Shown here in pieces: positions 3,374 through 62,509 of a stretch of DNA of 64,000 nt. Source of the DNA: Escherichia virus TH47; sequence record MT446416.1. One strand, written 5' to 3'. Position 1 is the first letter of the stretch. Each line of letters begins with the position of its first letter. The translations under genes and the position numbers were made by a program. Below the pieces are notes generated by a model. It was not told the origin of the DNA, searched no databases, and saw only the letters and a program-made list of their open reading frames with translations.

Positions 3374-3411
3374 GTATTCTCCTAAATGAGTAGTCACTCT
3401 AATTAATAAAC

Positions 3412-3439
3412 ATTATATCACATTCTTTGCGTTTGTCAA
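3412..3439 (-). promoter_or_regulatory. sigma70-type promoter TTGACA-N16-TGaTATAAT driving the ClpA-like gene
   Basis: Minus-strand reading TTGACAaacgcaaagaatgtgaTATAAT; consensus -35 and extended -10, about 32-nt leader to the ATG. Confidence 0.6.
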
Positions 3440-3444
3440 CAAGG

Positions 3445-3450
3445 TAAATA
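3445..3450 (+). promoter_or_regulatory. T4-late-like TAAATA motif 31 nt upstream of ATG 3482
   Basis: One of eight TAAATA sites found 31-36 nt upstream of gene starts in this window. Confidence 0.3.
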
Positions 3451-3481
3451 AAGATATACCCGATTTATTTTGGAGACAAAC

Positions 3482-4978
3482 ATGACATACAGAATGTGGA
3501 AAAAAGGTAGAACCAATGATTACAAGTTCATTGACTCTGCCATAGCAGAACAATACAACATCGGTGGTGTTGACATGTGGCTTTATGCCTATGTCGGACC
3601 AAAACAAGTCGCTGATAACACTGATTTATCATATGGCGGTGATTATTATGGTTCAGATAGTACCGTTGTGTCAAGCATTGGTGATTTAATTTTTGGTGAC
3701 ACTCCAAGTCGTAACTATAATCTCGAAGCTATCACCTTAAGTTGCGTCTACCAAGTCCAAGAAGCAACTCCTGACTTGAAAATCCCAGGATTGTTCTTCA
3801 ACTTTAACACTATGGACATCACAATTCATTATAACACAATGATTCAGCGTTTGGGAAGAAAAATTATGCCAGGTGACGTAATCGAACTCCCTAACTTACG
3901 TGATTTTGATGTACTTGGTAAAGATTCTGGTTTAAATCGCTTCTATGTAGTACAAGATGGGTTTAGAACATCAGAAGGTTACTCAGTTACATGGCAACAT
4001 CACATTTACAAACTCCGTGTTAAACCTCTTACTGATTCACCAGAGTATTCAGACCTTCTAGGTAACAATAACTACCCTGATGACCCAGATGAACCAAACA
4101 ACGGCAATGGTAATACTGATGATGGCTCTTCAGAGAACAGCAGCTATGGTAATGAAATGGACATTATGAACCGTATCATTATGCAAGCTGATGATGAAGT
4201 ACCATACATTCATTTTACTAACGAACACTTGTTCGATGACAGACCAGATACCGTTGATTTGTCTAAGTATATGCTAAATGGATACGAATTACCAGAGGAA
4301 CCAGCAAATAAAATGTATTTCCTCAAGAAAACTTACCCAGTACTGAAAGAACTATCTAATGATACATGGATTTCTGTAGAAGTCAAGCGTGGAACAATCT
4401 TTCCTCGCAAACCGATGGATGGTGACTTCTTCTTTAAAGAAAACGAGGCTGATGTCACTGGCTTCTCATTGTATCAATACGATAAATCTGCCAAAAAGTG
4501 GCTAAATTGTGATGTTGAGTATACTACAGAAAGCACACCACCACAAGGGGTTGATGATTTTTATATTGAATACAAAGAACCACACATTTATCAGTACTTA
4601 AATGGTAAATGGGGAGAACCAGAAGTAACTTACGTTAATGACCCATTCACTTCTAATAGTGTTTATGGAAATATCGATTCACAACAAGATTATCGTCCTA
4701 AGATTCCTCCAGCACGAGGTACAGTTCCTGAAGGTAATATGTTCCCAAGTGATGCAGTTGATGGTGATTACTACTATCGTACCGATTATACACCAGTAAC
4801 CCTATGGGAATACAGTGCATCCAAGAATTCTTGGGTGATTTTCGATTACGGTGGTAGAAAACCGTGGGAAGGTGCAGATCTTGCTCTAACAGAATTTGTT
4901 AATAGCCCGAACCGTGTACCATTACATGATGCAGTTAAACCTAATACAGCGTATCGTATACATAAGGATTCAGAATGA
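3482..4978 (+). CDS. hypothetical protein (possible virion structural)
   Basis: 498-aa ORF; ATG 3482 with GGAG SD; ORF-track start 3470 is TTG; stop overlaps next ATG (ATGA). Confidence 0.5.
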   Translation: MTYRMWKKGRTNDYKFIDSAIAEQYNIGGVDMWLYAYVGPKQVADNTDLSYGGDYYGSDSTVVSSIGDLIFGDTPSRNYNLEAITLSCVYQVQEATPDLKIPGLFFNFNTMDITIHYNTMIQRLGRKIMPGDVIELPNLRDFDVLGKDSGLNRFYVVQDGFRTSEGYSVTWQHHIYKLRVKPLTDSPEYSDLLGNNNYPDDPDEPNNGNGNTDDGSSENSSYGNEMDIMNRIIMQADDEVPYIHFTNEHLFDDRPDTVDLSKYMLNGYELPEEPANKMYFLKKTYPVLKELSNDTWISVEVKRGTIFPRKPMDGDFFFKENEADVTGFSLYQYDKSAKKWLNCDVEYTTESTPPQGVDDFYIEYKEPHIYQYLNGKWGEPEVTYVNDPFTSNSVYGNIDSQQDYRPKIPPARGTVPEGNMFPSDAVDGDYYYRTDYTPVTLWEYSASKNSWVIFDYGGRKPWEGADLALTEFVNSPNRVPLHDAVKPNTAYRIHKDSE

Positions 4979-6318
4979 AAATAGATTATTATTATGATGG
5001 TCAATTTCGTCGAGTACTGAAACATCTTATCAGAGTGTTTGGTGAATTTCAAGTACAAAATGGTGTTGATGCTGACGGAAAACCAAAATATAAGAAAGTT
5101 CCTTGCCGCTATGCAGATATTTCACGTATGGCAGCAGCAATTATTAATGGTAACAGTGAGAACGTGCTTCCAACAGCACCAATCATGACCATTAGTGTAA
5201 ACCAACTTAAACTAGATCGCAAGTCAGTTCGTTCAAACGCAAATGAAACATTAGTTATGGGGACTAACAAGTCCCCTGGAATTAACGAATATACTAAAGA
5301 CTTAGATAAACAGTATAAAGTAACTCGTCATAACCCAGTACCTTGGACATTTACGTTTGATGTTAATATTTGGGTTACACAAACACAAACTAAAATGGAA
5401 CTATTTGAGCAAATTTCAACATTGTTTGCTCCTAGTATTCAATTACAACTCTCCGAGAACCCACTGGATTGGACATCATTGAGTGATGTGGAGTTGATTG
5501 ACTGTCAATTTACTACTCGTGGTTTCCCACAAGGAACCGATAGTGATTTGGATATAATGGTATTGACATTTGAAACCACAATTTGGTTCTCTTTGCCAGC
5601 TATTGTTGAGAAACCAAAACTTATCCAACAAATCACCACCAATATTAAAGGTGCTCGTGATGAACTTGATTTTGAAATTGGTAATTACTCGGATATCATT
5701 ACTGATGTATTCACACCAAAGAACTTATGTATTAAAGTTGATGAAATAACAAACTCTGAACTTAATATCCCAGATACTTACCAACTCACTCTTGTTAGTC
5801 AATCACTATCAGAAACATCACCAAATGGTGGGATTTATTCATGGGAAAAATACCTTAAGTACTTGGACCCAGAATATGAAGACAAGACTGTAGGTATTAA
5901 ATTCCAACAAGCTATAGAAGAGGATAACCCACTAAAAGGACATATCTCTTCATTTGGGGAAGGGGCTGATTCTAACAAGATTGTAGTTCAGCTTGATAAT
6001 AGTAATTATACTGTTGATTATACAATACATGGATTCATTAGTAAAGACTCTTTGTTATATAACGCACTACCTGAACAATATTATGTAAATAATAGCATAC
6101 ATAACATCATTTACAAAGAGACTGAAATCCCAGCGAACTATTTGTTTAAAATTACCAATGATGGAGCAGAACTTATTGAGCCATCGCGAGTACACCACTA
6201 TGTTTATAATATGGAAGATAGTGGATATTATAGATATAATGACAAATTCAAATGGCATAAGAGTATTATGTCAGTATATCGTCAGGGATATTGGAAAATA
6301 ACTTTCACTGACAAATAA
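4975..6318 (+). CDS. hypothetical protein
   Basis: 447-aa ORF translationally coupled to upstream gene; no recognisable motif. Confidence 0.5.
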   Translation: MKIDYYYDGQFRRVLKHLIRVFGEFQVQNGVDADGKPKYKKVPCRYADISRMAAAIINGNSENVLPTAPIMTISVNQLKLDRKSVRSNANETLVMGTNKSPGINEYTKDLDKQYKVTRHNPVPWTFTFDVNIWVTQTQTKMELFEQISTLFAPSIQLQLSENPLDWTSLSDVELIDCQFTTRGFPQGTDSDLDIMVLTFETTIWFSLPAIVEKPKLIQQITTNIKGARDELDFEIGNYSDIITDVFTPKNLCIKVDEITNSELNIPDTYQLTLVSQSLSETSPNGGIYSWEKYLKYLDPEYEDKTVGIKFQQAIEEDNPLKGHISSFGEGADSNKIVVQLDNSNYTVDYTIHGFISKDSLLYNALPEQYYVNNSIHNIIYKETEIPANYLFKITNDGAELIEPSRVHHYVYNMEDSGYYRYNDKFKWHKSIMSVYRQGYWKITFTDK

Positions 6319-13482: not shown

Positions 13483-16400
13483 ATGTACTCGATTAAAACA
13501 GATCTCGATATAACTGGTGGTGCAACGGTTGGTAAAGATCTTCTTGTGAAAGGCGATGCAGTATTCAATAAAAATCTAACAGTTAATGGAACCGTAACTT
13601 TTGCTGACGCTGTATTCACTGCGATTGAAGCAGGAACTGTAGACATTTCATCTACACTAGATGTTGCTGGTAAAGCATCATTGAATGGTGGGATTGAAGT
13701 TCATGGTAATTCCGTAATTGGTAATTTACCAGTTGGCTCTGATACTGCAACGATTAATTCTAATGCACAATTCCAAAGCCCAGTATCAATGGCAGGTAAC
13801 CTAACACAAACGGCTGGCACTGCTGTACTAAAAGATACCCAAGTGGCATCAATGGATGTTCTTGGAACTTCTTCATTTAAAGGTAATATTACTGCTGAAA
13901 CTGGCACTACCGCAGCATTTGACAAAATAACTGCAACTGATGCAACATTCACAAACACTGCAACTACTGATATCACATCAACTGGAACTGCAAACTTTAA
14001 AGATGTGAATATTTCCGGTACACTAGGTGGAACATTTAGTCTATCTGATGTTAATGCAACAACTCTAACTGTTTCTGGTTTAACCAGTCTACAAGGTGGT
14101 GTTACATTAGGTTCCAACATTACTGGTGTGAATAGTAGTGCAAACTTCCGTGATATTAAAATTGGTTCCAATGCTGCAAACACTAACTACCGTTTGAGCT
14201 TTAACTATTCTGCTCCAAGTCTTCGTCCAACTGTAATTCTACAGAACGAAATCCAATCAGAATTGATGTCTCCAGCTACCCTAAGTGTATTGAAAACTGC
14301 ATCTTTTGGTGATTCGTCATTATCCACTTTTGGTATTACTGGTAATGGTCTAAACAAACTAGATTACCTAACAGTATCTGGTAACTCTGTTCAAGATCCA
14401 ACAACTCCACTATTACAAGTAACTTCAGGTAAAACTAAAGTTCATGATTTCGAAGTAACAGGAACTGCAACTATTCCTAACATTGAAAGTACTGGAACTG
14501 CTAATTTTAATAACATCAACGTATCTGGTACACTCGGCGGTACTTTCAGTCTTGATGATATTGAAGCAAACACTCTAACTGTTTCTGGATTAACTAGCCT
14601 TGTTGGTGGTGTAACTTTGGGTGCTGATATTTCCGGTGCTAATAGTACTGCTAATTTTAAAGCAGTAAGTTTAGGACAAAACGCAGCCGATGCTAACGTT
14701 AAGTATGGTTTTGCTTATTCTGCCCCTGGTGCACGTCCAACTGTAATTCTACAAAATGAAATTCAGTCTGAACTAGTATCTCCAGCAGTACTAAATGTAC
14801 AAAAAACTGCTACCTTCGGTGATGCATCTCTTGCAACCTATGGTATCACAGGTAACGGTCTAAACAAACTAGATTATCTATCTATTACTGGTAATGGTAC
14901 ACAAAGTCCAGCAACGCCACAACTACAAGTAGCTGGTAAATCAGTACTAAATGATGTTGAATTCACTGGTACTGTAACTGGCCTAACAGTTGATGTAAGT
15001 GGTCAAGACCTAACTCCTAAATCTGTTGTTGCTGCTGAAGCAATCAAAGGACAAACCCTTGAATCTGTTGGTCAAACCACCGTAGGAACTAACCTACAAG
15101 TTGGTGGAACAGCTAATGTTGTTGGTGCACTAACTGGTACTGCTGCAACCTTTACTGGTGACGTAAGTGCTGCTAAAGGTACTTTCAGTGGTGATGTTAG
15201 CGTTACTGGGCAAACTGTAACTGTACGTGATTTAGTAGTAACTGGCACAACTACTGGTGTAACTGCCCAAGCTGACGTTGATGGTCTTGATATCGCCCCA
15301 AATAAAGTTGATGTTACAACAACACTATCTGTTGCTGGGGACACTACTTTAGCTGGTCTAACTGCTAGTTCAGTAACAAGTACTGGTGATGTTACTGGTG
15401 CGTCTGTATCTGGTAATACAGTAACTGCGGCTGGTGCACTATCTGGTGGTTCTCTTGCAGTAACTGGTGCTGGTTCTATGGCTTCACTAACTGTTCCAAG
15501 TATTACTGGGGACACTACTTTTGCTAATAACGTAACTATTACTGGAACACTAACTCCGAGTAGTATAGATTTAAGCACTACTGATGTAAGTGCTGCTTCT
15601 TTAACAACTACTGGTAACGTAACTGTTGGTGGTTCTCTTGCAGTAACTGGTGCTATTGATTTGTCTGCTGCTGATGTAGTAACAAAATCAGTTAGTGCAA
15701 CTAACCCAAGTACATTTGGTGTAATTAATGCATCTTCTGTTGCCGCAACTGGTGACGTTTCAGGTGGCACTCTAACTACTACTGGTGCAGCGAAAGTAGG
15801 AACACTAACTAGTACTGGTGTAGTATCTGGTTCGCGTTTGTCTTCTGGTACTGCAACAATCTCAACTTCTGTAACAGTTCCAACTTTACAAGCTGAAGCT
15901 GCTGGTGCTGGTACACTAAATCTAGCAAGTAATGTTGTCGCGGCAAAAGATCTAACTGTCACTGGTGTATTCAAACCTGAAGGTGGTCTTGACCTAACAA
16001 CTGTTGATATTACTGCAAACTCACTAACTACTACTGCTGATGTTAATGTTGGTGGAAACTTAGTAGTTGATGGTACTTTTGACCTAAGTGCTGCTGATGT
16101 ATCAGTTAAATCTCTTGTAAGTGCAGAGGCAATTACTAGTGGTGGTGTGATTACCGTTACCGATTCAACCAATACTAGTTCGTTCCCTAAAATTACTTCA
16201 ACTGATGCAACACTCTTTACAGTAAATGCAGGTACTATTAATGCAACTGGCAACAGTGTACTACAAAGTGTATCAGCTACTCAAGTAACTGCTACTAGTG
16301 CTGAATTTTCTGGTAGTGGCCTTGGTCTTCAAGTTGATAATGATGCAAACGTTGGTGGTGCATTATCTGTTGGTGGCATTGCAACTGTTGGTTCTTTAAC

Positions 16401-18441
16401 AACAACTGCTGCTTCTCTTAATATTGCAAAAAATACTGCAATCAATGGTGATTTAGCTGTATCTGGTACACTAACTGCTGGTTCAATCGACCTAAGCAAT
16501 ACTGATGTAACCGTTAAATCTCTTGATTCACTAGGTAACGCACACATTGCTGGTAACCTAACTGTTGATGGTGCATTCGACTTAAGTGCAACTAACCTTG
16601 TAGCTGCAAGTCTAGCAAGTACTGGTTCTACTACTGTTGGAACTGATCTAGTACTAACAACTGGTGTTGTGACTGGTAGCCCAGCTATCTCTGGTAATAC
16701 AACAATCGGTGGAACTCTTGGTGTAACTGGTGCTGTTAACCTAACTGATATTGTTAATATCGGTAAGAAAGTAACAGTGAGTACTGGTGGTATTCAGGTA
16801 GTTGATGGTGGTATCAATACTAACACAATTAACGTTTCTGGTGCTACTACTCTAGCAGGAACTTCCATTACTGGAACTTTAGGTGTAACTGGTGCTTCTA
16901 CTCTAGCAGGTGTATCTGCAACATCACTAACAGTTTCTGGTGACAGTACTGTTCAGAAACTAACTGTCCAAGGTGAATTGATCCCACAAGGTGGTCTTGA
17001 CCTAAGCGGTGCAGACATTACTGCTAATAGTCTAACTACTGCAACAACTATCAATGCAACTGGCCTAAGTACTCTAAGTGGTGGTGTTAGTACTTCTACT
17101 GTGACTGCATCTGGTCTAGCAACTGTTGGAAGTTTAACTTCTACTGCAAACGCATCAGTTGGTGGTAATTTGGGTGTAACTGGAACTCTAGGTGTTACTG
17201 GTGCAACTACTGTATCTTCACTAACAGCTACTGGTGCAGTGAAAACTGGTACAACCCTAACTGTTGGTACTCCAGTTGGTGAACAACCTGAAACTGTACA
17301 GATCATTCCAGATACTTATATTGCTGGTAAATTGCGTGTAATCGGCGGTATTAACGCTGATATTGATGTTAGTGGTCAAACACTAGAACCATATGCAATT
17401 GAAGCTGCTGCAACACTATCTGCTGTTGGTAACATTACTTCTGGTGCAACCATCGTTTCTAAAGCTGCAACAATTGGTGATGTTGGTTCACAAAACAACA
17501 ACCTAACTGTTAATGGTAACGTAGTAACTAATGGTGACTTCACAGTTACTGGGGTACTAAATGCACAATTGAACCAAGCAGATTCCGATGTAGCTGTTAA
17601 ATCTTTAACTGCAACTAATAACGTTGCGGCTGGTACTTCAATCACTGCTGGTACTTCCATCACTGCAACTGGATTACTTAAAGGTAATACTTTAGAAGTT
17701 ACTACTACTGGTTCATTTGGTGGTGCAGTAACTATGTCAAGTGGTGCAAACATCACTGGTACAGTGGGTATTACTGCTGGTGACCTAACAGTAGGTGGTA
17801 ATATCTCTGCAACTGGCACTGCTGGATTCGGTGCAACAACCGTTTCTACAATTACAACATCAGGTTTGGCTACACTTGCAAGTACATCCGTTACTGGTAA
17901 CGCAACAGTAGGTGGAACACTAGCAGTAACAGGAGCACTAACTGCGAATGGTAACGTAACATTAGGTGACGCAGCGGCTGACGTTCTAACCGTTAATGCA
18001 ACTTCATCATTTAAAGAAAATGCTGTGTTTGATAAGGCAGTAACAGTAACTGGTGAACTAACCACTACTAATGCTAACTTAACTACTACAACAGTAACTA
18101 CCAAAAAGTATGATGTAATCCCAACTCAAGTTACATCATCAGTAATTGCTCCAACCGGAACATGGACTCCAGATGGTACAAGTAACGTGTACTTCATCAC
18201 TCTAGACCAAGATACCACGTTGGCTCCAATTACTGGCCTAATTGGTGGCGGTAAAGCTGCATCAGTATACATCTATGTTAAACAAGATACAACTGGTAAC
18301 AGAAACTTTACAACTGATGGTACTTATGCTGTTGTTGATGGTGAACTAAACAAAACTGCTGGTAGCGTGACCATTTACCAAGTAATTTATGATGGTGTAA
18401 GTCCAGTTACTGATTTGTTCATTGCACAACGTACTGCTTAA
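13483..18441 (+). CDS. giant repetitive fibrous protein (1652 aa)
   Basis: T/G/V/S/A-rich periodic sequence; GGAGGG SD; tandem 170-aa duplication near N-terminus. Confidence 0.6.
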   Translation: MYSIKTDLDITGGATVGKDLLVKGDAVFNKNLTVNGTVTFADAVFTAIEAGTVDISSTLDVAGKASLNGGIEVHGNSVIGNLPVGSDTATINSNAQFQSPVSMAGNLTQTAGTAVLKDTQVASMDVLGTSSFKGNITAETGTTAAFDKITATDATFTNTATTDITSTGTANFKDVNISGTLGGTFSLSDVNATTLTVSGLTSLQGGVTLGSNITGVNSSANFRDIKIGSNAANTNYRLSFNYSAPSLRPTVILQNEIQSELMSPATLSVLKTASFGDSSLSTFGITGNGLNKLDYLTVSGNSVQDPTTPLLQVTSGKTKVHDFEVTGTATIPNIESTGTANFNNINVSGTLGGTFSLDDIEANTLTVSGLTSLVGGVTLGADISGANSTANFKAVSLGQNAADANVKYGFAYSAPGARPTVILQNEIQSELVSPAVLNVQKTATFGDASLATYGITGNGLNKLDYLSITGNGTQSPATPQLQVAGKSVLNDVEFTGTVTGLTVDVSGQDLTPKSVVAAEAIKGQTLESVGQTTVGTNLQVGGTANVVGALTGTAATFTGDVSAAKGTFSGDVSVTGQTVTVRDLVVTGTTTGVTAQADVDGLDIAPNKVDVTTTLSVAGDTTLAGLTASSVTSTGDVTGASVSGNTVTAAGALSGGSLAVTGAGSMASLTVPSITGDTTFANNVTITGTLTPSSIDLSTTDVSAASLTTTGNVTVGGSLAVTGAIDLSAADVVTKSVSATNPSTFGVINASSVAATGDVSGGTLTTTGAAKVGTLTSTGVVSGSRLSSGTATISTSVTVPTLQAEAAGAGTLNLASNVVAAKDLTVTGVFKPEGGLDLTTVDITANSLTTTADVNVGGNLVVDGTFDLSAADVSVKSLVSAEAITSGGVITVTDSTNTSSFPKITSTDATLFTVNAGTINATGNSVLQSVSATQVTATSAEFSGSGLGLQVDNDANVGGALSVGGIATVGSLTTTAASLNIAKNTAINGDLAVSGTLTAGSIDLSNTDVTVKSLDSLGNAHIAGNLTVDGAFDLSATNLVAASLASTGSTTVGTDLVLTTGVVTGSPAISGNTTIGGTLGVTGAVNLTDIVNIGKKVTVSTGGIQVVDGGINTNTINVSGATTLAGTSITGTLGVTGASTLAGVSATSLTVSGDSTVQKLTVQGELIPQGGLDLSGADITANSLTTATTINATGLSTLSGGVSTSTVTASGLATVGSLTSTANASVGGNLGVTGTLGVTGATTVSSLTATGAVKTGTTLTVGTPVGEQPETVQIIPDTYIAGKLRVIGGINADIDVSGQTLEPYAIEAAATLSAVGNITSGATIVSKAATIGDVGSQNNNLTVNGNVVTNGDFTVTGVLNAQLNQADSDVAVKSLTATNNVAAGTSITAGTSITATGLLKGNTLEVTTTGSFGGAVTMSSGANITGTVGITAGDLTVGGNISATGTAGFGATTVSTITTSGLATLASTSVTGNATVGGTLAVTGALTANGNVTLGDAAADVLTVNATSSFKENAVFDKAVTVTGELTTTNANLTTTTVTTKKYDVIPTQVTSSVIAPTGTWTPDGTSNVYFITLDQDTTLAPITGLIGGGKAASVYIYVKQDTTGNRNFTTDGTYAVVDGELNKTAGSVTIYQVIYDGVSPVTDLFIAQRTA
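13978..14997 (+). repeat. tandem duplication (2 x about 510 bp) inside the giant fibre gene
   Basis: Protein segments 166-335 and 336-500 align over their full length (STGTANF...TVILQNEIQSEL...GITGNGLNKLDYL). Confidence 0.7.
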
Positions 18442-39256: not shown

Positions 39257-41251
39257 TTAATATTTTTTTGTGTATTTTATATTACCAGAGTTGTAAATCT
39301 TATAATATCCCAATACATCACAGCAAATTTGTCTCTCAGTTAAGTTAATATCATGACCTTTCTTGACCAATTTATGTTTTTGACATTTCTGACGTGAAAT
39401 CCTCTCATGTGTTTGTGGGTCATAATAAAAATATCCGGGTTCTGTATAGCTATCAAACTCAAAGCCAAGAACTGTATAAAGATCACCACTACTCCAATCC
39501 ATATCCGCATATGTCAATAATGATTGTGGATTATATACTGTTTCAAAATATTTTAGTAATTTTGATGCACCACCAACAACTGTACCGGATGAACAGTATC
39601 TGATTAATTCATATTCATAGTTTTTATCAAACCTTGATTTACCAAAGGTCATAACTGCAACTAAATCACTTCCATAGTAAAGTCCAATGTGAATACTTGC
39701 TTGTGCAACACCTTGAATATGGTGTGATTTAGTAAACATATTACTTACTTGTTTGTCTATATTTCTAACAGTACATTTTCTAGCATAAATTCTATTTGAC
39801 ACTAGAAGTTTATTCTTTAAACGTTCCTTGATAATTTTATTTGTTAATGGGTTATCCCATTCATCTTCATAAATGTGAATAAGATTCACCCCATGTTTTA
39901 AACAATCCAATACCTTATCTTGATGTTTAGTGGAATTTACATTTTCATCATTATGCCAATACACACCATTAAATTCAATAGCTAGATTACGGTCTGGGAT
40001 ATACACATCCAACTCTTTAGGTTTCAGCACTGAACGGTCGTTTTCTATAATTTGCATATTTTGTATTAATGATTTTATATAATCAACTAAATCTTTCTCT
40101 TTCAATGAATGACCATTATTTTTCTGACACTTACATTTCACTTTATGATTTTTATACTTACTATAAAACAATTCATCACAATACTCACACCAAAATGGGT
40201 ATTCGTCTGTATTAACTTTCATCATTAGGTCGGTGTTTTCAAATAATGGAATATAGTTTTTATCAATATTTGCAACAATGATATTATATCTTTCGTCTAG
40301 ACGAGCAAGTGACATTTTCTCTTTATACTCATCAGTCTGTGAGTAGTGTTCTGAACCATATCTATTTTTTGTGGTTTCTTTCATTTTTTCAATGATAGAA
40401 TTATTTTGGGCTGGGTGTTTTACACCATATCGCTCCACATTGGTATTATGAACTTTTTCCTGAACACTCATATTGCTCATTGGGTAAAATGAATTATACT
40501 TCAACGTGTTGGTGTTTTTTATTTTATCTTGGACAATTTTATTTGATAGTGGATTGCCACCATATCGTTCAAGATTTGTTTTATTGATTTTTTCACGAAT
40601 CGTCGGTGATGATAAAGAATACTCAGCACCGTATCTTAATATATTTGTGTTTTTGGCTTTCTCTTTTACTTCATTTCTTTTGCTTTGGAATTCAACACCA
40701 TACTTTTTTAAATTTGTTGCTTTTACTTTATTGAATATTTCAGAGTTTTGGTTTGGATATTCACAACCATATCGCTCTATATTAGTTTGTTTGATTTTAT
40801 CTTTAGTTTCTGATGTTTGTAAATTAGATGAGACACCATAACGCTCAATGTTAGTTTTTTCTTTCTTTTGTTTTACTTCTTGTATTTGGGACACATTAGA
40901 TACACCATACATATCCATTAATGTTGATTTTGTTTTATTAGTTCGATTTTTATAATACATTTCATGGCATACATTACATGTATTTTTCTTATTAATCACA
41001 TAGTCATCACAAAATTTATAAAATCCTTTTTGGAAATTTTTGTATCTTGCTTTTTTTCCGCAATATGCAGTTGGAACGGTTGTTATATCATTCATGAACA
41101 TATATAGAATTTTATATATTTCGAAATCAGTTTTTGGTTCTATTCCAAAAGTAGAAAGGAGAACCCTCACACGAGAGTCCCCTTTGTATAAATGTACCCA
41201 TGAATTAATATGTTTTGACAACAAAAGTTTTTTTAATTCTTCATTGTTCAT
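39257..41251 (-). CDS. homing-endonuclease-like protein with ten ~23-aa RYG repeats and a Vsr-like nuclease domain
   Basis: Cys-rich N-terminus; ten ~23-aa R/K-Y-G/N repeats; C-terminal LAIEFNGVYWH motif typical of PD-(D/E)xK homing-endonuclease-like domains. Confidence 0.6.
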   Translation of the reverse strand: MNNEELKKLLLSKHINSWVHLYKGDSRVRVLLSTFGIEPKTDFEIYKILYMFMNDITTVPTAYCGKKARYKNFQKGFYKFCDDYVINKKNTCNVCHEMYYKNRTNKTKSTLMDMYGVSNVSQIQEVKQKKEKTNIERYGVSSNLQTSETKDKIKQTNIERYGCEYPNQNSEIFNKVKATNLKKYGVEFQSKRNEVKEKAKNTNILRYGAEYSLSSPTIREKINKTNLERYGGNPLSNKIVQDKIKNTNTLKYNSFYPMSNMSVQEKVHNTNVERYGVKHPAQNNSIIEKMKETTKNRYGSEHYSQTDEYKEKMSLARLDERYNIIVANIDKNYIPLFENTDLMMKVNTDEYPFWCEYCDELFYSKYKNHKVKCKCQKNNGHSLKEKDLVDYIKSLIQNMQIIENDRSVLKPKELDVYIPDRNLAIEFNGVYWHNDENVNSTKHQDKVLDCLKHGVNLIHIYEDEWDNPLTNKIIKERLKNKLLVSNRIYARKCTVRNIDKQVSNMFTKSHHIQGVAQASIHIGLYYGSDLVAVMTFGKSRFDKNYEYELIRYCSSGTVVGGASKLLKYFETVYNPQSLLTYADMDWSSGDLYTVLGFEFDSYTEPGYFYYDPQTHERISRQKCQKHKLVKKGHDINLTERQICCDVLGYYKIYNSGNIKYTKKY
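40277..40939 (-). repeat. in-frame ~69-bp tandem repeats encoding the RYG modules
   Basis: RYG/KYG/RYN recur every 22-24 residues (protein positions ~115-323). Confidence 0.6.
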
Positions 41252-44867: not shown

Positions 44868-45983
44868 TTAGAACATTTGCTTGATTGCTTCAATACGCAA
44901 TTCAGCAACAAAATCACGAATCTCTGATGTTTGGAGTTCACCATCTTTCACTAACTGCTGAATATCAGGTAATTCAACATCAGTATAACGATCATAAACT
45001 TTAATAATCAAATCTTCAAGATCAGAATCAATTTCTTTGTTCAAAATGAAGTTTTCCAGTACTTTGTAAAGGAAATCTTCGCCACCATTGTTTTTGATAT
45101 TCATCTCCAGTAAGATTTGTCCCATTTCAACGGGGGTCTTCTTACGGAAGGTTTTAATATCTTCACGGAAACGCTTGATGTAATTACTAAACTTCACGTA
45201 CTTAACTGGAACCTTAATAGAACCATTAAGTACTGAATCATTATTTACTTCTTCATTTTCAAGAAGTACTGTCCATAAGAAATATGGTTTATATTCTTCT
45301 GTACAATTTGCAGCGATAGCATCAATTAATTCCAGACGTTTCTTGGTAACTGGAACTGTAGTAAATGCCTTTTCGTAATAACCAAATTGTACCAGAGTTT
45401 TGATAAACTTGGAAGGGTTTTCTTCAGAAAGTGCTTTTTCGAATTCAACAAAAACACGATCTGGAACTAGATGGTCTAGTTCACCAGTACTAACCATATC
45501 TTTACACATTGTCATAGTATCATCATGGATTGTAAAGTCTGAGTAACGTGTAGCGAAACGTGCCAAACGTAGTACACGCAATGGATCTTCTTTAAAGTGT
45601 TCTGATACATGACGAAGTACTTTGTTCTTGATATCAGCTTTCCCGCCATAAGGGTCGATGTGAATCTGGAGTACTGGATCATACGCTATGCTATTTACCG
45701 TAATATCCCTTCTGTATAGATCTTGCTCTAGTGTCACGCCTTTAGTATTCACTTCGAAGCCACCGTAGCCAGTACCAGTTTTACGTTCGGTACGTGCCAA
45801 TGCGTGCTCATTACCCTCTGGACTTAGATACACTGGAAAATCCTTACCTACTTGCTTATAGCCAATACTTTGTAAGTACTTAATATCGGATTCGGTAGCA
45901 CCGACAATGACATAATCTTTGTCTTTTGCACGAATACCCATTAAACGGTCCCTCACATAGCCGCCCACCAAATACTTTTTCAT
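44868..45983 (-). CDS. cca: tRNA nucleotidyltransferase (CCA-adding enzyme), head domain only
   Basis: YLVGGYVRD...KDKDYV, EHALARTERK, GYGGF, TLEQDLYRRDITVNS, EDPLRVLRLARF match E. coli Cca as recalled; no HD domain. Confidence 0.85.
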   Translation of the reverse strand: MKKYLVGGYVRDRLMGIRAKDKDYVIVGATESDIKYLQSIGYKQVGKDFPVYLSPEGNEHALARTERKTGTGYGGFEVNTKGVTLEQDLYRRDITVNSIAYDPVLQIHIDPYGGKADIKNKVLRHVSEHFKEDPLRVLRLARFATRYSDFTIHDDTMTMCKDMVSTGELDHLVPDRVFVEFEKALSEENPSKFIKTLVQFGYYEKAFTTVPVTKKRLELIDAIAANCTEEYKPYFLWTVLLENEEVNNDSVLNGSIKVPVKYVKFSNYIKRFREDIKTFRKKTPVEMGQILLEMNIKNNGGEDFLYKVLENFILNKEIDSDLEDLIIKVYDRYTDVELPDIQQLVKDGELQTSEIRDFVAELRIEAIKQMF

Positions 45984-47047
45984 AATATACCTTCCTCTGA
46001 AAGATGTTTTTTTAATACAGTTAAGTGGTCTTCATAATATGTTACACGTATTAATTTAATAAAATTCTTTTCACAATATTGTGTCTTTATAGTATCGTTA
46101 TCCTTGATGTTTTTCAATTTATCTTCTCCACCCCAATGAGGTGATTTCTCAAAATGTTGTTTACCATCATACTCAATACAAATATCATAATCAACCAAAT
46201 AAAAATCAAATCTTAATAACATTTTATTTTTACAGTCACTAAATGTTTGTTCTTTATTAAATTTTATACCATTTTCAATTAAAAAACGTGTTATTTCTCT
46301 ACTAGCTCTGGATTCAGTATGTTCAGATGAGCATATTGGGCAACCTTGTTTTTTATTTTTTGCTATATGAAAATTTGGAATGATATAAAAAGAATTATTA
46401 TGTTTTTTACAAATTATTTCAACATGAGTGCTACTATTAATGTAGATGACTTTTGAATAGTCATATACATTACCATGAATTTCTTTTGCTCGTTCAACAA
46501 ATTCAGCGGTGGTGAATGCGTGTGCTAATCTGGTTTTTTCAAATCGACAAATAGAGCAACCCTGACCACTTTGTATATTACTAATTTCCATTTCATCAAC
46601 GTGACCACATTTTAAGCATTTATAAGTTAATTTGGTTCTTTTATCTTTAATTATTGGTTGTTCTAAAAGTAATTCACATTCACCAGTCATTAGACTTTTT
46701 GAAGTCTTATAAAGATAATATCTATAATTTGCATTGTCATATTTCCCAATGATATATTTCATACCTTTCGTTTTTATATCATTTATATTTCTTTTTGTAT
46801 ATATAATACCATCTTTTTCAACAACAGTTCTTGTAAAACTAGATTTCCATTCATCACTTGATGTTATAGCAAATCCTAAAATATTATATCCTTTTTCTAT
46901 TATTTCTTCAAAATGTTCTTTAGGTGTTTTTGATGTTTTAATTAATTTTGGTGATAAATCTTCGGGACGCATCCATTCGAAACGCATACCTAATTCTTCA
47001 TGGAAATATACCTTCTCGTTATTTTCATTAAAATAAAATTTATACAT
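45980..47047 (-). CDS. homing-endonuclease-like protein (zinc ribbons plus Vsr-like nuclease motif)
   Basis: CLKCGH...CSIC and CPIC zinc-ribbon pairs; RFDFYLVDYDICIEYDGKQHF motif shared with the 39257-41251 protein. Confidence 0.55.
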   Translation of the reverse strand: MYKFYFNENNEKVYFHEELGMRFEWMRPEDLSPKLIKTSKTPKEHFEEIIEKGYNILGFAITSSDEWKSSFTRTVVEKDGIIYTKRNINDIKTKGMKYIIGKYDNANYRYYLYKTSKSLMTGECELLLEQPIIKDKRTKLTYKCLKCGHVDEMEISNIQSGQGCSICRFEKTRLAHAFTTAEFVERAKEIHGNVYDYSKVIYINSSTHVEIICKKHNNSFYIIPNFHIAKNKKQGCPICSSEHTESRASREITRFLIENGIKFNKEQTFSDCKNKMLLRFDFYLVDYDICIEYDGKQHFEKSPHWGGEDKLKNIKDNDTIKTQYCEKNFIKLIRVTYYEDHLTVLKKHLSEEGIL

Positions 47048-55872: not shown

Positions 55873-56514
55873 TCATATTTTATTTATAGTAATGGTGATA
55901 TTAAAACTTTCTATATCATTCTTTAATATATCAACTCGTTTTCGTAAACCATCTATAACTTCTGGTATTACATCATTTTTATACATCTCTATTAACTCTT
56001 CTATATATTTTTTCTTTTCTATCTGCCACGCACGATGTGCATCTTCTGGAGTTTCATAAACACCAATGTATGTTGTTTTATTATATATTGTTATTTTAGC
56101 ACAATAAGGTTTGGTATATTCACTCACCATGTCTTTTGGACGTTTTCTGTATATCACTCCCATTCCATATGGTGATGCATTTGCAGCACTGTCTAGTATA
56201 CAGTAATTCAATTCTTTGGGAACAAATGCACATGTTTCAGGAGAATAGATTTTCTTACTCCCACCAATAATATCTTTATCTAATTGATATCCTTCTTTAT
56301 AATGTGATTTGTACCAAATTTTAAATTTTGAATAATACTTCCACTCATCACATACAACAGTTCCAATATAAGAACCCTTAGCCTTATCGGAATAGCATCG
56401 GTCTAACATACGTTGCCATGCACAATATATTGCTCGATCTGGATTTGTTATACTAGCATCACCTTTTATATCACAGATGCCATGACCATAAAACTTCTTC
56501 ATTAATTTATCCAT
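55873..56514 (-). CDS. putative DNA-binding protein with AP2-like domain
   Basis: W..M..RCY...Y.G..VC.EW module and C-terminal YIGVYETPEDAHRAWQ AP2-like motif; no nuclease motif seen. Confidence 0.45.
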   Translation of the reverse strand: MDKLMKKFYGHGICDIKGDASITNPDRAIYCAWQRMLDRCYSDKAKGSYIGTVVCDEWKYYSKFKIWYKSHYKEGYQLDKDIIGGSKKIYSPETCAFVPKELNYCILDSAANASPYGMGVIYRKRPKDMVSEYTKPYCAKITIYNKTTYIGVYETPEDAHRAWQIEKKKYIEELIEMYKNDVIPEVIDGLRKRVDILKNDIESFNITITINKI

Positions 56515-58452: not shown

Positions 58453-59064
58453 TTAATTGTGATTATTCAATTTCTTTTGTTCTTTTTTTAGAGCTTTCAT
58501 ATGTCGTCCAAAATCACGGACATGCCATATATGGTCGGTTTCCCATAGTTCTGTACGTAAACGGCGTTCTTCCAATTCTTCTGGAGTAGGAATTTTAGAT
58601 TTCTTCTTATCTTTATTGAAAAAATCATTCATATGTTCTTCCAGTAGATTTCTACCCTTAACTTTTTCCAGGAATTCATCTACTGATTCAGTTTTATTAG
58701 AACGAAGACTGTTACAACGTGAACACATTGTGTTGTAATTTGACTCTAAATCAGGTCCACCCTTAGATGCTAGTTGGTTATTATCTACTGTCATCAGTAC
58801 TTCATATAGACCACAAACTGCATAGACATTTAAGTGAGGTTTACCATATACCGGATCTGTGCTATGTGAACGCTCAATGCGAACTTCAGTAGCTTCAATG
58901 CCACACGCAACGCATTTGCAATTCTTAACGAATGTCAGTACTTTTTGTGGGAAGTATCGGAAAGTAACACCGTTATATGTATAGCGTTTCATCTGTGTAC
59001 TTCTTTGATTTAACTCATTAAGAAGTGATAGTTTGGCAACATAGTAGACCTGATATTTTGACAT
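58453..59064 (-). CDS. Cys-rich zinc-finger protein, possibly HNH-like
   Basis: CKCVAC...H...CSRCNSLRSNK; canonical HNH histidines not all present. Confidence 0.35.
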   Translation of the reverse strand: MSKYQVYYVAKLSLLNELNQRSTQMKRYTYNGVTFRYFPQKVLTFVKNCKCVACGIEATEVRIERSHSTDPVYGKPHLNVYAVCGLYEVLMTVDNNQLASKGGPDLESNYNTMCSRCNSLRSNKTESVDEFLEKVKGRNLLEEHMNDFFNKDKKKSKIPTPEELEERRLRTELWETDHIWHVRDFGRHMKALKKEQKKLNNHN

Positions 59065-60232: not shown

Positions 60233-62509
60233 TTATTTTTTACTGTACCATTGCATTTCACGGATATCTAATAGTACCTTCGTAGCCAACTTTATGTTTG
60301 GTCGCTTCGGTAGATGGGTTTTATGATACGCCACATTTCGGATGTAGTCAACCTTTTCGTTGAAATAATCCATAACTTCTTGATACAACCACTTCCCGTT
60401 ACGAATGTCCATCAACATAGCAGCATCTGGTCGGTGAACTTGGATGATGCCAGTTTCAAGTGCTTCCTCGGCTGTATTCAGCAGCCTGATTGTATGCATA
60501 GCATGTTTGCAATTTCCATGTAATGCGGTTTTTCCATTTCTACGAGTAATGAGTGTTCCGTTGGGAACAGAAAAACACACAGTTCTGTAATTAGTAACTG
60601 GAATTTTTTCAAGATTTTGTTTCATGTTCATTTTTTCGGTTTTGGGTTTCATATTGATATGAATTTGATATATATCAACACTACCAAAATTGGTTTCGTT
60701 TGTGTATGGTCCCCATTTTGATGTTTCATAACCACATAGCAATGCTAGTTTTTGAACATCATCAGCTAATAATGAATTGGTAGTATAATATACAAATGTA
60801 TCATTGTCATTAACTAAATTTCGTTTTGTTCCATCACCTTGTAACAAACCTTTCAGAAGGAAATCCATTTTACGTTTTGTTAAATCAAATACCCAATTTG
60901 GAATTCGTTTATTATATGAACCATGTCCACAATCATTATATAATGCTTCAGCTACTTCACTTGGGAATGTATATCTTGATTCGTCATTAGCTTGATAATC
61001 TTTCTTTTCTATAATGTATTCATTAAACATTAATTGACCAGATTTTTTGTATTTTGATAAAGCACAACGCATACCTTGACTAGTTTTTGACTGGGAAATA
61101 TATAAAGATTTTACTTTACCATCCCTGAAATTTATGCACCCATCTGAAATAAACCATCCCATGAGTTGAAGATAAACTTTGATATCCATGTAGTCAATTG
61201 GACTTTTTTTATCTTTGTGTTCTTTAGTTATTGGGGATATTGTATTCAAAATTTTATATGTTTCTTTTAATTGTGCTGCTTCTACAAATTTCCAATCAGA
61301 CATATCTTTTTGTTGATTTCGTGCATAATCCTTAACATACATTCGGTGGTTAGCAGTCACTAAAGTATCTTGGTGATGACCAGTGAAATGGTATAGATTG
61401 CCATTATATAAATTATCAAAACGTTCAGTGTATTTCTGATATTCAACTTTGTGATTTTTGTCAAAAGTAGCTAATAGATCGTTTTCAGTAATATCATCAA
61501 ATAACTTCCAACCATCTTTAGTTAAGAATTCAGTATCAAAACTATAACAGTCATAACCGTGGTGTGATTCAAGAATAGCACGTTTGGCATTACGGTTCTG
61601 CTTCCATTTGTGATAACTCTTACGGTTCTCACTATTTTCTTTGTATTCCTTTTCATTGAATTTTACAATGAGTTCAGGACGAACTTTTAATTCTTCCGAA
61701 GTACGTTCTTTATTGAAGTAACGTAGTGAACCATCAGCATTCACTGTACTTTCATTCGGGTTGATAATTACCCCAAAGATGTTTTCACCGTAATGGATTA
61801 GTTCATATCCAGAATTGTAATTCAATAAATTGAAATCACGATCTAATACTTTGTCAGTACTATAATTATGTACTAAACGTACAAAATGATATTGTTTCAA
61901 TGCTTGTGTTGAAACTAATTGTAATGAAGTATCACGCATGTATTTTTCGAAATCAATTTTTGTAGCATTGAATGGGTGAAGATTGGATTTATTCAAACGG
62001 TCAACCAAATACTGCGGGAATGTATCATACATCCATGAAAGTACTTCGTCAACTGGATGTTCTTCTAAAATTTCATTTAGTTTACGTTCAGCAATTCGTT
62101 CCTTATCGAGCCATCCGTGGTGATTCGACATACGCTTAACCTGATTGTATGCATAACCACTGTATGAATGAGCAATCTTTGAACTCAATAATTGCTGATT
62201 GAATGAGCGTAGATAGTCATAGATTTCAGTACTTTCTACGATGTGTTCCGGTTTAACCCATAGTGATTCAAGAATGTTTGGGTTAGCTTCTGTATAAAGA
62301 CTTAAGTACTGATTGACTTCATAAAATTTAGTATCTTCTTCAGAAGGATCTGAAACTTCCTTAACATTAAAAAAAGGAGTTAGGATAAATTCTTTGTTTG
62401 CAAGGAAGATACCACGATAATCGGTATCACTTTCTGGTGTGCTTGTGCCATACGCCTGTGAACCCGCTAAGTGTTTAACAATTGTTTGTTCTAGAAAATT
62501 GTTTTTCAT
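60233..62509 (-). CDS. Pol-beta-superfamily nucleotidyltransferase-like protein interrupted by an intein
   Basis: N-terminal GS-x9-SDTD nucleotidyltransferase signature; 346-aa insertion with intein and LAGLIDADG motifs; ATGA coupling with upstream gene. Confidence 0.65.
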   Translation of the reverse strand: MKNNFLEQTIVKHLAGSQAYGTSTPESDTDYRGIFLANKEFILTPFFNVKEVSDPSEEDTKFYEVNQYLSLYTEANPNILESLWVKPEHIVESTEIYDYLRSFNQQLLSSKIAHSYSGYAYNQVKRMSNHHGWLDKERIAERKLNEILEEHPVDEVLSWMYDTFPQYLVDRLNKSNLHPFNATKIDFEKYMRDTSLQLVSTQALKQYHFVRLVHNYSTDKVLDRDFNLLNYNSGYELIHYGENIFGVIINPNESTVNADGSLRYFNKERTSEELKVRPELIVKFNEKEYKENSENRKSYHKWKQNRNAKRAILESHHGYDCYSFDTEFLTKDGWKLFDDITENDLLATFDKNHKVEYQKYTERFDNLYNGNLYHFTGHHQDTLVTANHRMYVKDYARNQQKDMSDWKFVEAAQLKETYKILNTISPITKEHKDKKSPIDYMDIKVYLQLMGWFISDGCINFRDGKVKSLYISQSKTSQGMRCALSKYKKSGQLMFNEYIIEKKDYQANDESRYTFPSEVAEALYNDCGHGSYNKRIPNWVFDLTKRKMDFLLKGLLQGDGTKRNLVNDNDTFVYYTTNSLLADDVQKLALLCGYETSKWGPYTNETNFGSVDIYQIHINMKPKTEKMNMKQNLEKIPVTNYRTVCFSVPNGTLITRRNGKTALHGNCKHAMHTIRLLNTAEEALETGIIQVHRPDAAMLMDIRNGKWLYQEVMDYFNEKVDYIRNVAYHKTHLPKRPNIKLATKVLLDIREMQWYSKK
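60512..61549 (-). mobile_element. intein with LAGLIDADG homing endonuclease (346 aa)
   Basis: Starts CYSFDTEFLT (block A), block B TANH, LAGLIDADG motifs LMGWFISDG and LLQGDG, ends HGN before Cys +1; codons checked against DNA. Confidence 0.7.

Follow-up and report, generated by a model that had tools for sequence, protein, structure and literature searches.

Nucleotidyltransferase genes are established intein hosts in mycobacteriophages. Kelley 2016 listed the nucleotidyltransferase (PF10127 / IPR018775) as a host with 23 examples from cluster C1 (PMC5050341), and Gosselin 2025 listed it again (bioRxiv 10.1101/2025.01.02.630785). The loss of the penultimate histidine in phage inteins has also been described and tested. 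In assays that covered the TerL and RDF inteins only, the Bethlehem RDF intein spliced completely in E. coli, and restoring the histidine (G316H) slowed splicing (PMC5050341). We found no splicing or cleavage assay for the nucleotidyltransferase-intein family in the literature searched. In class 1 inteins an Asp at position F:4 and a penultimate His are usual, neither being obligatory, while the defining trait of class 3 inteins is that a position-1 nucleophile is not needed.

We analysed a 64,000-nucleotide stretch (the window) of Escherichia virus TH47 (MT446416.1), an Asteriusvirus-like E. coli jumbo phage of the 350-380 kb class. It holds an RlaP-family nucleotidyltransferase gene with an insertion that has exact borders, a predicted HINT plus LAGLIDADG fold, conserved residues and an allelic site, and that is present or absent among otherwise similar phages. 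Alignment identifies the insert as a new copy of the known mycobacteriophage C1 gp3 nucleotidyltransferase element, and it is the first full copy that we could find in an enterobacterial jumbo phage.

An intein splits an RlaP-family nucleotidyltransferase gene

The features of the locus are given in Table 1. An earlier note on this DNA had read the 758-aa open reading frame as a nucleotidyltransferase-like protein of about 412 aa plus a 346-aa element, with coordinates that are correct to the base. The motifs it named (intein block A, a TANH block B, two LAGLIDADG motifs, and a terminal Asn followed by Cys) are all present.

Table 1. Coordinates of the nucleotidyltransferase gene, its exteins and the intein features within the window
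Feature	Coordinates	Strand	Details
Precursor gene, 758 codons + stop	60233..62509	(-)	RlaP-family nucleotidyltransferase split by intein; precursor 89.3 kDa
N-extein, aa 1-320	61550..62509	(-)	Pol-beta nucleotidyltransferase core G16-S17, D28-x-D30; C-terminal end ...ESHHGYD
C-extein, aa 667-758	60236..60511	(-)	N-terminal start CKHAMHTIRLL
Intein, 346 aa, Cys1 to Asn346	60512..61549	(-)	ORF residues 321-666; 1038 bp; 40.5 kDa
Intein block A, CYSFDTEFLTKDGW	61508..61549	(-)	C1, Y2, TEFLT and GW family-invariant
Intein block B, HQDTLVTANHRMYV	61334..61375	(-)	T65 (B:7), H68 (B:10), M70 (B:12)
LAGLIDADG homing-endonuclease domain, intein residues about 118-302	60644..61198	(-)	Between the two splicing-domain halves
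LAGLIDADG motif 1, VYLQLMGWFISDG, intein residues 125-137	61139..61177	(-)	Acidic residue D136
LAGLIDADG motif 2, DFLLKGLLQGDGT, intein residues 229-241	60827..60865	(-)	Acidic residue D239
Intein block F, RTVCFSVPNGTLITRR	60539..60586	(-)	C325 = F:4; block-F His absent in TH47 copy
Intein block G plus +1 residue, KTALHGN then Cys	60509..60532	(-)	H344 (G:5), G345 (G:6), N346 (G:7), Cys+1

The N-extein matches the RlaP family in Pfam (PF10127; 55-59 bits, where the cut-off is 23), and the host protein matches phrog_388 (E 5e-75). RlaP has been associated with RNA repair (PMC7824862). The Pol-beta G-S and DxD motifs are present, with G16, S17, D28 and D30 all invariant in the host family. Without the insert the enzyme is 412 aa long with a predicted mass of 48.9 kDa.

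The insertion lies in a loop joining two helices of the host protein, between D320 and K322, each of which is invariant in 85/85 sequences of the host family. The sequence at the start of the C-extein, CKHAMHTIRLL, is the top conserved motif in the C-terminal half of that family, and excision of the intein restores the conserved host motif GYD-CKHAMH-x-x-RLL. Sequence searches of the PDB with the extein, and with a 44-aa C-terminal junction peptide, gave no match. A fold search with the extein model returned only weak matches to Pol-beta nucleotidyltransferases (HalB and kanamycin nucleotidyltransferase, E about 0.02-0.05). Because the PDB sequence searches were empty and these fold matches weak, the role of the split motif is one that we infer.

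The intein ends read CYSFDTEFLT...TALHGN. The features of class 1 that it displays are a Cys1 nucleophile, a block B TxxH (TANH, intein residues 65-68) and a C-terminal Asn followed by Cys. At the 3' junction the codons CAT GGA AAT then TGC encode His-Gly-Asn then Cys, so the glycine noted earlier at the penultimate position (Gly345, codon GGA) is real at the DNA level and the usual G:6 His is missing. Position F:4, located by aligning without gaps to clade members that carry a canonical VYDLTV, is Cys325 and not the Asp usual in class 1. The insert also matches LAGLIDADG_3 in Pfam (PF14528; 24.6-27.1 bits, where the cut-off is 22.5). This score, the predicted fold, and two motifs with the acidic residues D136 and D239 are those of a double-motif monomeric LAGLIDADG endonuclease.

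Predicted structure of the intein

The AlphaFold2 model of the intein (pLDDT 91.6, pTM 0.90) predicts a HINT plus LAGLIDADG fold. The best PDB matches to the model in Foldseek are TliVMA, PI-SceI, PI-PfuI, PhoVMA and PI-PkoII, then I-DmoI, and the matches also include the hedgehog autoprocessing domain. PI-SceI, TliVMA, PI-PfuI and PI-PkoII are likewise two-domain HINT plus LAGLIDADG proteins (E 1e-15 to 1e-9, TM about 0.6), but they share only 10-13% sequence identity with the TH47 intein, are larger, come from archaeal or yeast hosts, and differ in having canonical His-Asn ends and extra DNA-recognition regions. In a profile search with the intein, PI-PkoII aligned over both LAGLIDADG motifs.

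The insert is present or absent among close phages

The exact 1038 bp are missing from eight Asteriusvirus phages with flanks 97-98% identical to those in TH47, and the insert is therefore not a chance pattern. Intein-plus and intein-minus genes were compared directly after cutting out the 1038 bp. The resulting 1239-bp gene is collinear with EcMJ_241 of phage vB_Ec-M-J, from which it differs by 26 nt and 2 aa, and the predicted spliced product is 99.5% identical to EcMJ_241 in amino-acid sequence (2/412 residues differ). Around the junction the two DNAs match exactly over 45 nt on the upstream side and 41 nt on the downstream side; mismatches are evenly spread, with none less than about 40 nt from the insertion site. 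The alignment of exteins with intein-less homologues that the earlier note had proposed thus confirms, in the comparison with EcMJ_241, the insertion point it had placed, exactly, between ESHHGYD and CKHAMH. More widely, the closest 31 extein homologues are all 412 aa long, and 118 of the best 120 are 335-447 aa, below the size needed for an intein.

These comparisons bear on whether the 346 aa could belong natively to the enzyme as one of its domains, or result from a chimeric assembly, and not be a mobile insertion at all. Apart from the uninterrupted reading frame nothing speaks for this, and near-identical orthologues do without the 346 aa. We give the idea practically no credence: the eight phages without the insert, the collinearity of EcMJ_241 and the predicted HINT plus LAGLIDADG fold refute it, the same allele occurs in independent assemblies, and the insert splits the most conserved motif of the host family between two invariant residues.

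A near-identical donor of the intein was not found, the closest full-length relative being 54% identical. The intein DNA is absent from INPHARED phages, in near and distant searches, and from complete E. coli genomes; a look-up of proteins identical to the 758-aa product returned no entry. The sequence turned up only in partial proteins from E. coli draft assemblies. These near-identical partial copies come from three assemblies that are independent of one another, which disfavours an assembly artefact. No co-conversion tract near the site was obvious in the comparison with vB_Ec-M-J. Since neither a near-identical donor nor an obvious co-conversion tract was found, it is solely the presence/absence pattern that suggests recent homing.

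The TH47 intein belongs to the C1 gp3 family

Among annotated relatives, the TH47 intein is closest to the gp3 nucleotidyltransferase inteins found in cluster C1 mycobacteriophages such as Cali and LRRHood. These gp3 inteins align with all 346 residues of the TH47 intein at 33% identity (E 4e-50), and their insertion site is homologous, with GWD/TK aligned to GYD/CK in TH47 (the slash marks the junction). Cys1, TxNH, two LAGLIDADG motifs, a block F reading VCF(S/T)VPN and the C-terminal end TRRNGKxAxHGN are shared, whereas the +1 residue is Thr in C1 gp3 and Cys in TH47. The C1 phages have actinobacterial hosts, and their exteins share only about 20% identity with that of TH47. Cali gp3 is itself a PF10127 RlaP protein (167 bits). 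The suggestion of the earlier note that this kind of enzyme had gone unlisted as an intein host does not hold, given the published listings cited above and the related intein at the homologous site in Cali. The same site is also filled in the Lak-B9 megaphage, in P0136 and in 17 metagenomic RlaP proteins; overall, the allele is found in Lak megaphages and about 18 metagenomic RlaP genes. Database labels on the relatives vary among 'HNH endonuclease', 'LAGLIDADG endonuclease' and 'hypothetical protein'.

Conservation was counted over 19 intein relatives at 35-50% identity. C1, H68, K214, C325 (F:4) and N346 are invariant in 19/19, and position B:7 is Thr or Ser in all of them. In the endonuclease, the position of D136 is D or E in 19/19 and that of D239 is D in 18/19. 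The conservation of splicing residues together with both LAGLIDADG acidic residues indicates selection on both the splicing and the endonuclease functions. The +1 residue is C, S or T throughout. The penultimate residue is Gly in 18 relatives and Ser in one. It is also invariably Gly among those more distant relatives, in ThyX, methylase and other hosts, that have a readable intein C-terminus (16 of the 22 examined). The HGN end that the earlier note called atypical is so against the textbook consensus and is ordinary within the family. Both the Gly-Asn ending and the F:4 Cys are inherited clade signatures and not defects. We considered whether His344 (G:5) might be a general stand-in for the penultimate His and rejected this, because the position is His or Gln in the family (Gln in 7/19) and some of the members with Gln also lack the block-F His. 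In the wider clade G:5 is I, C, S, T or V.

A degenerate intein that no longer splices, leaving the nucleotidyltransferase gene of TH47 effectively inactivated, would account for the absence of three canonical assisting residues (penultimate His, F:4 Asp and block-F His), and the gene may be dispensable enough to fit the rarity of inteins in its homologues. We consider this very improbable. The 758-codon frame is intact, every nucleophile is present, the endonuclease residues are intact, and relatives from unrelated phage lineages keep the same non-canonical residues at 35-50% identity. The Bethlehem RDF intein, moreover, has the same layout and splices efficiently. It shares with the TH47 intein Cys1, F:4 Cys, VPNG, the penultimate Gly and the terminal Asn, and its block F (VWCLRVPNG) has the same spacing of 21 residues from F:4 to Asn. 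It differs in its metallophosphoesterase host, its site (NHD/C...N/S), and its Thr at G:5 and Val at B:12, and it is absent among the matches listed in a tblastn search with the TH47 intein. The Bethlehem RDF / phosphoesterase protein is numbered gp51 in Kelley 2016 and gp52 in the AY500153 annotation.

The F:4 Cys raises the question of a class-3-like or hybrid splicing route. It is present in 19/19 family members, and MP-Be DnaB, the prototype of class 3, has the same spacing from F:4 to Asn (C320 to N341). The best PDB sequence match to the N-terminal splicing domain is a class-3 split intein, AceL NrdHF (PDB 6ZGQ; PMC7891396). AceL NrdHF reads ...NHRM, with a His and a Met (B:12) at numbering identical to H68 and M70 of TH47, and likewise has Cys at F:4 and neither the block-F nor the penultimate His. 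Unlike the TH47 intein, it starts with Ala and so has no position-1 nucleophile, is naturally split, lacks an endonuclease and carries Thr at G:5, and its host is related to ribonucleotide reductase. Cys1 and the class-1 Thr/Ser at B:7 are invariant in the TH47 family, and G:5 is not Thr. The F:4 Cys is replaceable, since the wider clade has Asp in P0037 and P0041 (with the canonical VYDLTV), Ser in P0034 and Gly in P0043, and the Bethlehem RDF intein has been treated as class 1 (PMC5050341). Membership of class 3 proper is rejected because Cys1 is invariant and, of the WCT triplet (B:12, F:4, G:5), TH47 has Met70, Cys325 and His344, with only the Cys matching; in AceL NrdHF the variant triplet is MCT (PMC7891396). 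We regard a class-3-like or hybrid route as distinctly unlikely.

The three cysteines Cys1, Cys325 and Cys+1 are expected in or beside the splicing centre and could form a redox switch under which the RNA-repair enzyme would mature only once conditions are reducing. Disulfide-trapped precursor conformers are known from the RDF G316H mutant (PMC5050341), as is a regulatory disulfide formed by the catalytic F:4 Cys in Msm DnaBi1. Against such conditional splicing, +1 is Thr or Ser in 11/19 family members, so a Cys1-Cys+1 disulfide cannot be common to the family, and splicing of the wild-type RDF intein showed no delay (PMC5050341). This proposal seems improbable to us.

Proposed splicing and homing pathway

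Taken together, the evidence makes it very likely that the TH47 insert is a full-size class-1-type LAGLIDADG intein in an RlaP gene, that it splices and homes, and that it is an allele of the C1 gp3 family. Splicing, endonuclease activity and homing we infer, and the intein is genuine and probably active as a homing element. The gene would be translated as an 89-kDa precursor, in which Cys1, helped by T65 and H68, would form a thioester at the GYD/C junction. The N-extein would then move onto Cys+1, and cyclisation of Asn346 would free the 40.5-kDa intein. This would leave the 48.9-kDa nucleotidyltransferase with its invariant motif rejoined. Once free, the intein would work as an endonuclease on relatives infecting the same cell, cutting their intein-less allele at the same sequence, and repair of the break would copy the intein into the cut allele. 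The intein-less alleles of vB_Ec-M-J (EcMJ_241) and Ecwhy_1 are candidate substrates, with a predicted target centred on CACGGTTATGAC/TGCAAACATGCT; 121Q-like phages show Thr-codon variants of it. Such homing would account for nearly identical phages that differ only by these exact 1038 bp. Counting against this reading, the TH47 copy lacks the usual catalytic helpers (F:4 Asp, block-F His and penultimate His).

It is unlikely, though a reading that we retain, that the splicing chemistry of the clade falls cleanly into neither of classes 1 and 3 and that its allele spread by repeated homing. Behind this reading stand three features of the clade: Cys1 is accompanied by a Cys in block F, the penultimate residue is obligatorily Gly, and His is often missing from F:13, G:5 and G:6. 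The thioester could be relayed from Cys1 to Cys(F:4) and on to the +1 residue, and Asn cyclisation could be helped by the invariant Thr335-Arg336 or by Asn330 in place of histidines. One allele would have homed repeatedly into the same RlaP motif in phages of Actinobacteria, Bacteroidota (Lak megaphages) and Enterobacteria.

Significance

The importance of the TH47 intein is modest. The proper annotation of the TH47 gene is an intein-containing nucleotidyltransferase. If the intein splices, it would be a compact natural example with a Gly-Asn end and no block-F His, of possible interest for intein engineering. The near-isogenic intein-plus and intein-minus E. coli phages offer a convenient laboratory system for homing during co-infection. 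A known actinobacteriophage intein allele is now extended to an E. coli jumbo phage, and the C1 and TH47 inteins resemble each other more closely than do the genes that host them, which fits lateral movement. Along with the copies from Lak megaphages and metagenomes, the TH47 copy points to the RlaP GxD/(T/C/S)K motif as a homing site common to phage lineages that are very far apart.

The RlaP gene is interrupted by an intein

The gene described in the earlier note, a minus-strand ORF encoding 758 residues, was recovered with intein boundaries that match exactly, running from CYSFDTEFLT at residue 321 to ...TALHGN at residue 666. Excision of these 346 residues leaves a protein of 412 aa, as had been estimated for the host. 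The N-extein is RlaP (PF10127, 55–59 bits against a Pfam cut-off of 23 bits), described as an 'RNA repair pathway DNA polymerase beta family', and the exteins match phrog_388 'nucleotidyltransferase' in PHROGs over their whole length (E 5e-75). The insert matches LAGLIDADG_3 in Pfam, and its NCBIfam matches are exclusively to intein-containing models (GyrA_w_intein, PolII large subunit and DnaB).

The source is a jumbo phage of E. coli, Asteriusvirus-like and in the 121Q/Rak2 group. In eight sequenced relatives the gene matches in two pieces at 97–98% nucleotide identity, with the middle 1038 bp skipped. Without this segment the window gene is collinear with EcMJ_241, its 1239 bp orthologue in the close relative vB_Ec-M-J; the two differ by 26 nucleotides and 2 amino acids. 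No base differs over 45 nt on the upstream side of the junction and 41 nt on the downstream side, and the peptide AILESHHGYD-CKHAMHTIRL is common to both. Among the 120 best extein homologues out of 5.8 billion proteins, the closest 31 (98–100% identity) are all 412 aa long, and 118 are 335–447 aa, with no room for an intein. The exceptions are a 287-aa fragment and P0136, a 686-aa protein from a relative of the window phage group carrying a related intein at this site. The 346-aa element is an insertion; its reading as a native domain is ruled out by the intein-less relatives, which skip exactly 1038 bp.

Insertion site in the host enzyme

The insertion falls inside the motif G-Y-D-[T/C/S]-K-H-A-M-H-x-x-R-L-L. 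Across 85 diverse homologues that lack the intein, no block other than the N-terminal Pol-beta core is better conserved. All 85 have D320, K322, H326 and R329. The +1 residue is Thr in 60 of them, Cys in 12 and Ser in 5; a nucleophile is thus already present in the host. In a model of the extein (pLDDT 91.9), the junction lies in a short loop between helices 308–317 and 321–340. PDB sequence and fold searches with the extein returned no close solved structure, so a catalytic or substrate-binding role for the split motif is one that we infer; the fold matches are weak and of the Pol-beta NTase type (HalB, kanamycin nucleotidyltransferase). The predicted role of RlaP enzymes is to replace nucleotides that RNA ends have lost, ahead of ligation, and so to counter host anticodon nucleases (PMC7824862).

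The Cys+1 codon of the window gene is TGC, and intein-less Asteriusvirus alleles already have Cys there (GYD-C-KHAMH), whereas Thr predominates in the wider family. The Asteriusvirus Cys could be the trace of an intein that once occupied the site and was lost precisely, or it could have pre-adapted the site to invasion.

Fold and conserved residues of the intein

An AlphaFold2 model of the 346 residues, computed with 17 homologues as input, has a pLDDT of 91.6 and a pTM of 0.90. Its top PDB fold matches are endonuclease-containing inteins (TliVMA, PI-SceI, PI-PfuI, PhoVMA and PI-PkoII; E 1e-15 to 1e-9), followed by the free LAGLIDADG enzyme I-DmoI and a hedgehog autoprocessing domain. Both LAGLIDADG motifs align to PI-PkoII in the family profile. 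Across 19 family members that are 35–50% identical to the window copy, the invariant residues include C1, Y2, TEFLT, G13 and W14 at the N-terminus, N67 and the block B His (H68), S135, G137, K214 and G240 in the middle, and V324, C325, F326, N330, T335, R336, G339 and N346 at the C-terminus. The first LAGLIDADG acidic residue is Asp or Glu in all 19 members and the second is Asp in 18. That splicing and endonuclease residues are both conserved across very different hosts is an argument for selection on both activities.

The Gly-Asn end and splicing class

The 3' junction codons are CAT GGA AAT followed by TGC, so the penultimate Gly, reported earlier at the DNA level, is free of reading error. 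Its description as atypical holds only against the textbook consensus, since Gly is the rule at G:6 (18 of 19 family members, with Ser in one). At G:5, 12 members have His and 7 have Gln; Gly, Glu or His stands at the block-F His position, and some members have no His at block F, G:5 or G:6. We examined 22 more distant relatives, with hosts that include ThyX, DNA methylase and RNA polymerase; they have the common pattern C-x-x-x-T-E-V-L-T...V-R-R-N-G-K...x-G-N, with a variable G:5 and with Gly at G:6 in all 16 with a readable C-terminus. The Gly-Asn end is thus, judged from the alignments, a clade signature.

Block F of the window copy reads RTVCFSVPNG. Some clade members have the textbook VYDLTVPN instead, and in a gap-free alignment with these, Cys325 falls at F:4, where Mtu RecA has Asp422. 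For the N-terminal splicing domain, the top PDB match by sequence is AceL NrdHF, an unusual class-3 intein, which is like the window copy in its NHRM (H68, M70), its F:4 Cys and its lack of either assisting His. We rejected a class 3 reading on account of the invariant Cys1 and B:7 Thr/Ser, a G:5 residue other than Thr, and the Asp, Ser or Gly that some clade members have at F:4. The Bethlehem RDF intein (junctions NHD/CSWTN...EVWCLRVPNGRFFIEDGGKIHLTGN/S) has the same Cys1, F:4 Cys, VPNG and penultimate Gly as the window copy, and in both, F:4 and the Asn are 21 residues apart. It splices completely in E. coli, and its G316H variant is slow (PMC5050341). By analogy, this precedent settles that splicing from a layout of the window type is plausible.

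Distribution and host range

In a tblastn search of 50,697 phage genomes, the best matches to the intein were gp3 proteins of cluster C1 mycobacteriophages, aligned over all 346 residues at about 33% identity (E 4e-50). Cali gp3 (junctions ...ELIEAYGWD/CYLDDTEFLT...IVCFTVPNETLVTRRNGKVAMHGN/TKTGYHALRL) is, like the window host, a PF10127 protein (167 bits), and the two junctions are in register when the exteins are aligned. The exteins are about 20% identical and the inteins 33%. GenBank labels for C1 gp3 vary ('nucleotidyltransferase', 'HNH endonuclease', 'LAGLIDADG endonuclease', 'nucleotidyltransferase with HNH endonuclease'); of these, the HNH designation is incorrect for a LAGLIDADG intein. 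Kelley et al. 2016 name 'NT, nucleotidyltransferase' among intein hosts and count 23 examples in cluster C1; they also report that phage inteins often have Gly, Lys or Ser in place of the penultimate His (PMC5050341). Gosselin et al. 2025 again include nucleotidyltransferase (IPR018775) with the hosts known from earlier reports, and analyse its local spread (bioRxiv 10.1101/2025.01.02.630785). The earlier impression that this kind of enzyme was unlisted as a host is therefore unsupported.

The same site is occupied in Prevotella megaphage Lak-B9 (NYD/CYLNNETEFLT...VAFHGN/SKNMMH) and in 17 metagenomic RlaP proteins. One metagenomic RlaP intein protein (P0005) occurs on T4-like contigs of 84–237 kb (cluster maximum 352 kb). 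On its contigs L004 and L005 the RlaP gene is apparently split (3346–5800) into a 177-aa ORF with the PF10127 N-domain, a 41-aa ORF and a 599-aa intein ORF. Either a second intervening element (perhaps an intron) or a frameshift before the intein could account for this. Another, the fragment P0012, lies at 5001–6632 of L006, a 557-kb contig binned into a Promethearchaeota MAG. The genes around it (NAPRTase, PRPP synthetase, nucleoside deoxyribosyltransferase and a GIY-YIG protein) resemble those of a giant phage, not an Asgard archaeon, and the contig may be mis-binned.

The annotated collections searched (INPHARED phages, complete E. coli genomes and an exact-protein look-up) yielded no full-length copy of the intein in the window. 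Three partial proteins from E. coli drafts (P0001, P0165 and P0166; NCBI EPE1232641.1, HAN1507203.1 and EFJ0711899.1) are identical to the window intein allele except at one residue (YYTANS versus YYTTNS). All are partial, on contigs of 1.4–4.5 kb from isolate assemblies, which indicates jumbo-phage DNA carried along with the sequenced isolates; the intein region tends to break assemblies.

Other insertions and divergence in the window

Four mobile-endonuclease insertions, the intein included, distinguish the 64-kb window from vB_Ec-M-J. The 664-aa ORF, on a segment of about 2 kb that directly follows the head-tail adaptor gene, probably encodes a free-standing homing endonuclease. The 355-aa ORF (about 1.06 kb) lies directly upstream of the tRNA (CCA-adding) nucleotidyltransferase gene, and the 213-aa ORF occupies a segment of about 0.7 kb. 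Both phages also have the 203-aa ORF, which lies two genes away from the intein host; its Pfam HNH matches are weak and sub-threshold. The tail-fibre region is 72–79% identical to vB_Ec-M-J or unaligned, versus 95–98% for the remaining window, which suggests exchange of a host-range module.

Positions of the intein, its host gene and other features in the window
Feature	Position	Strand	Matches
Tail-fibre region	13966-17164		
664-aa ORF	39257-41251	-	phrog_3339 'homing endonuclease' (E 5e-163); Pfam DUF7487 repeats (N-x-E-R-Y-G)
355-aa ORF	45980-47047	-	phrog_559 and phrog_9084 (HNH / homing endonuclease); treble-clef zinc finger
213-aa ORF	55873-56514	-	phrog_953 'HNH endonuclease' (E 6e-65); no Pfam match
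203-aa ORF	58453-59064	-	vB_Ec-M-J counterpart EcMJ_245, annotated HNH endonuclease
758-aa RlaP-intein ORF	60233-62509	-	
Cys+1 codon	60509-60511	-	
Intein	60512-61549	-	

Proposed mechanism and significance

We infer splicing, cleavage and homing for the window intein. The predicted 89.3-kDa precursor would undergo standard class-1 splicing to a 48.9-kDa enzyme and a 40.5-kDa intein (computed masses), and the released LAGLIDADG endonuclease would home into the intein-less allele of co-infecting relatives. Intein-less relatives retain an identical target sequence at the site.

The window element is a real, well-preserved intein that is probably active and mobile. It is a further member of a documented intein allele, and neither its host class nor its terminal chemistry is new. 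Its interest lies in the cross-phylum spread of one allele, in a putative active site that combines Cys1, the F:4 Cys and a Gly-Asn end, and in the near-isogenic intein-plus and intein-minus coliphages that are to hand.
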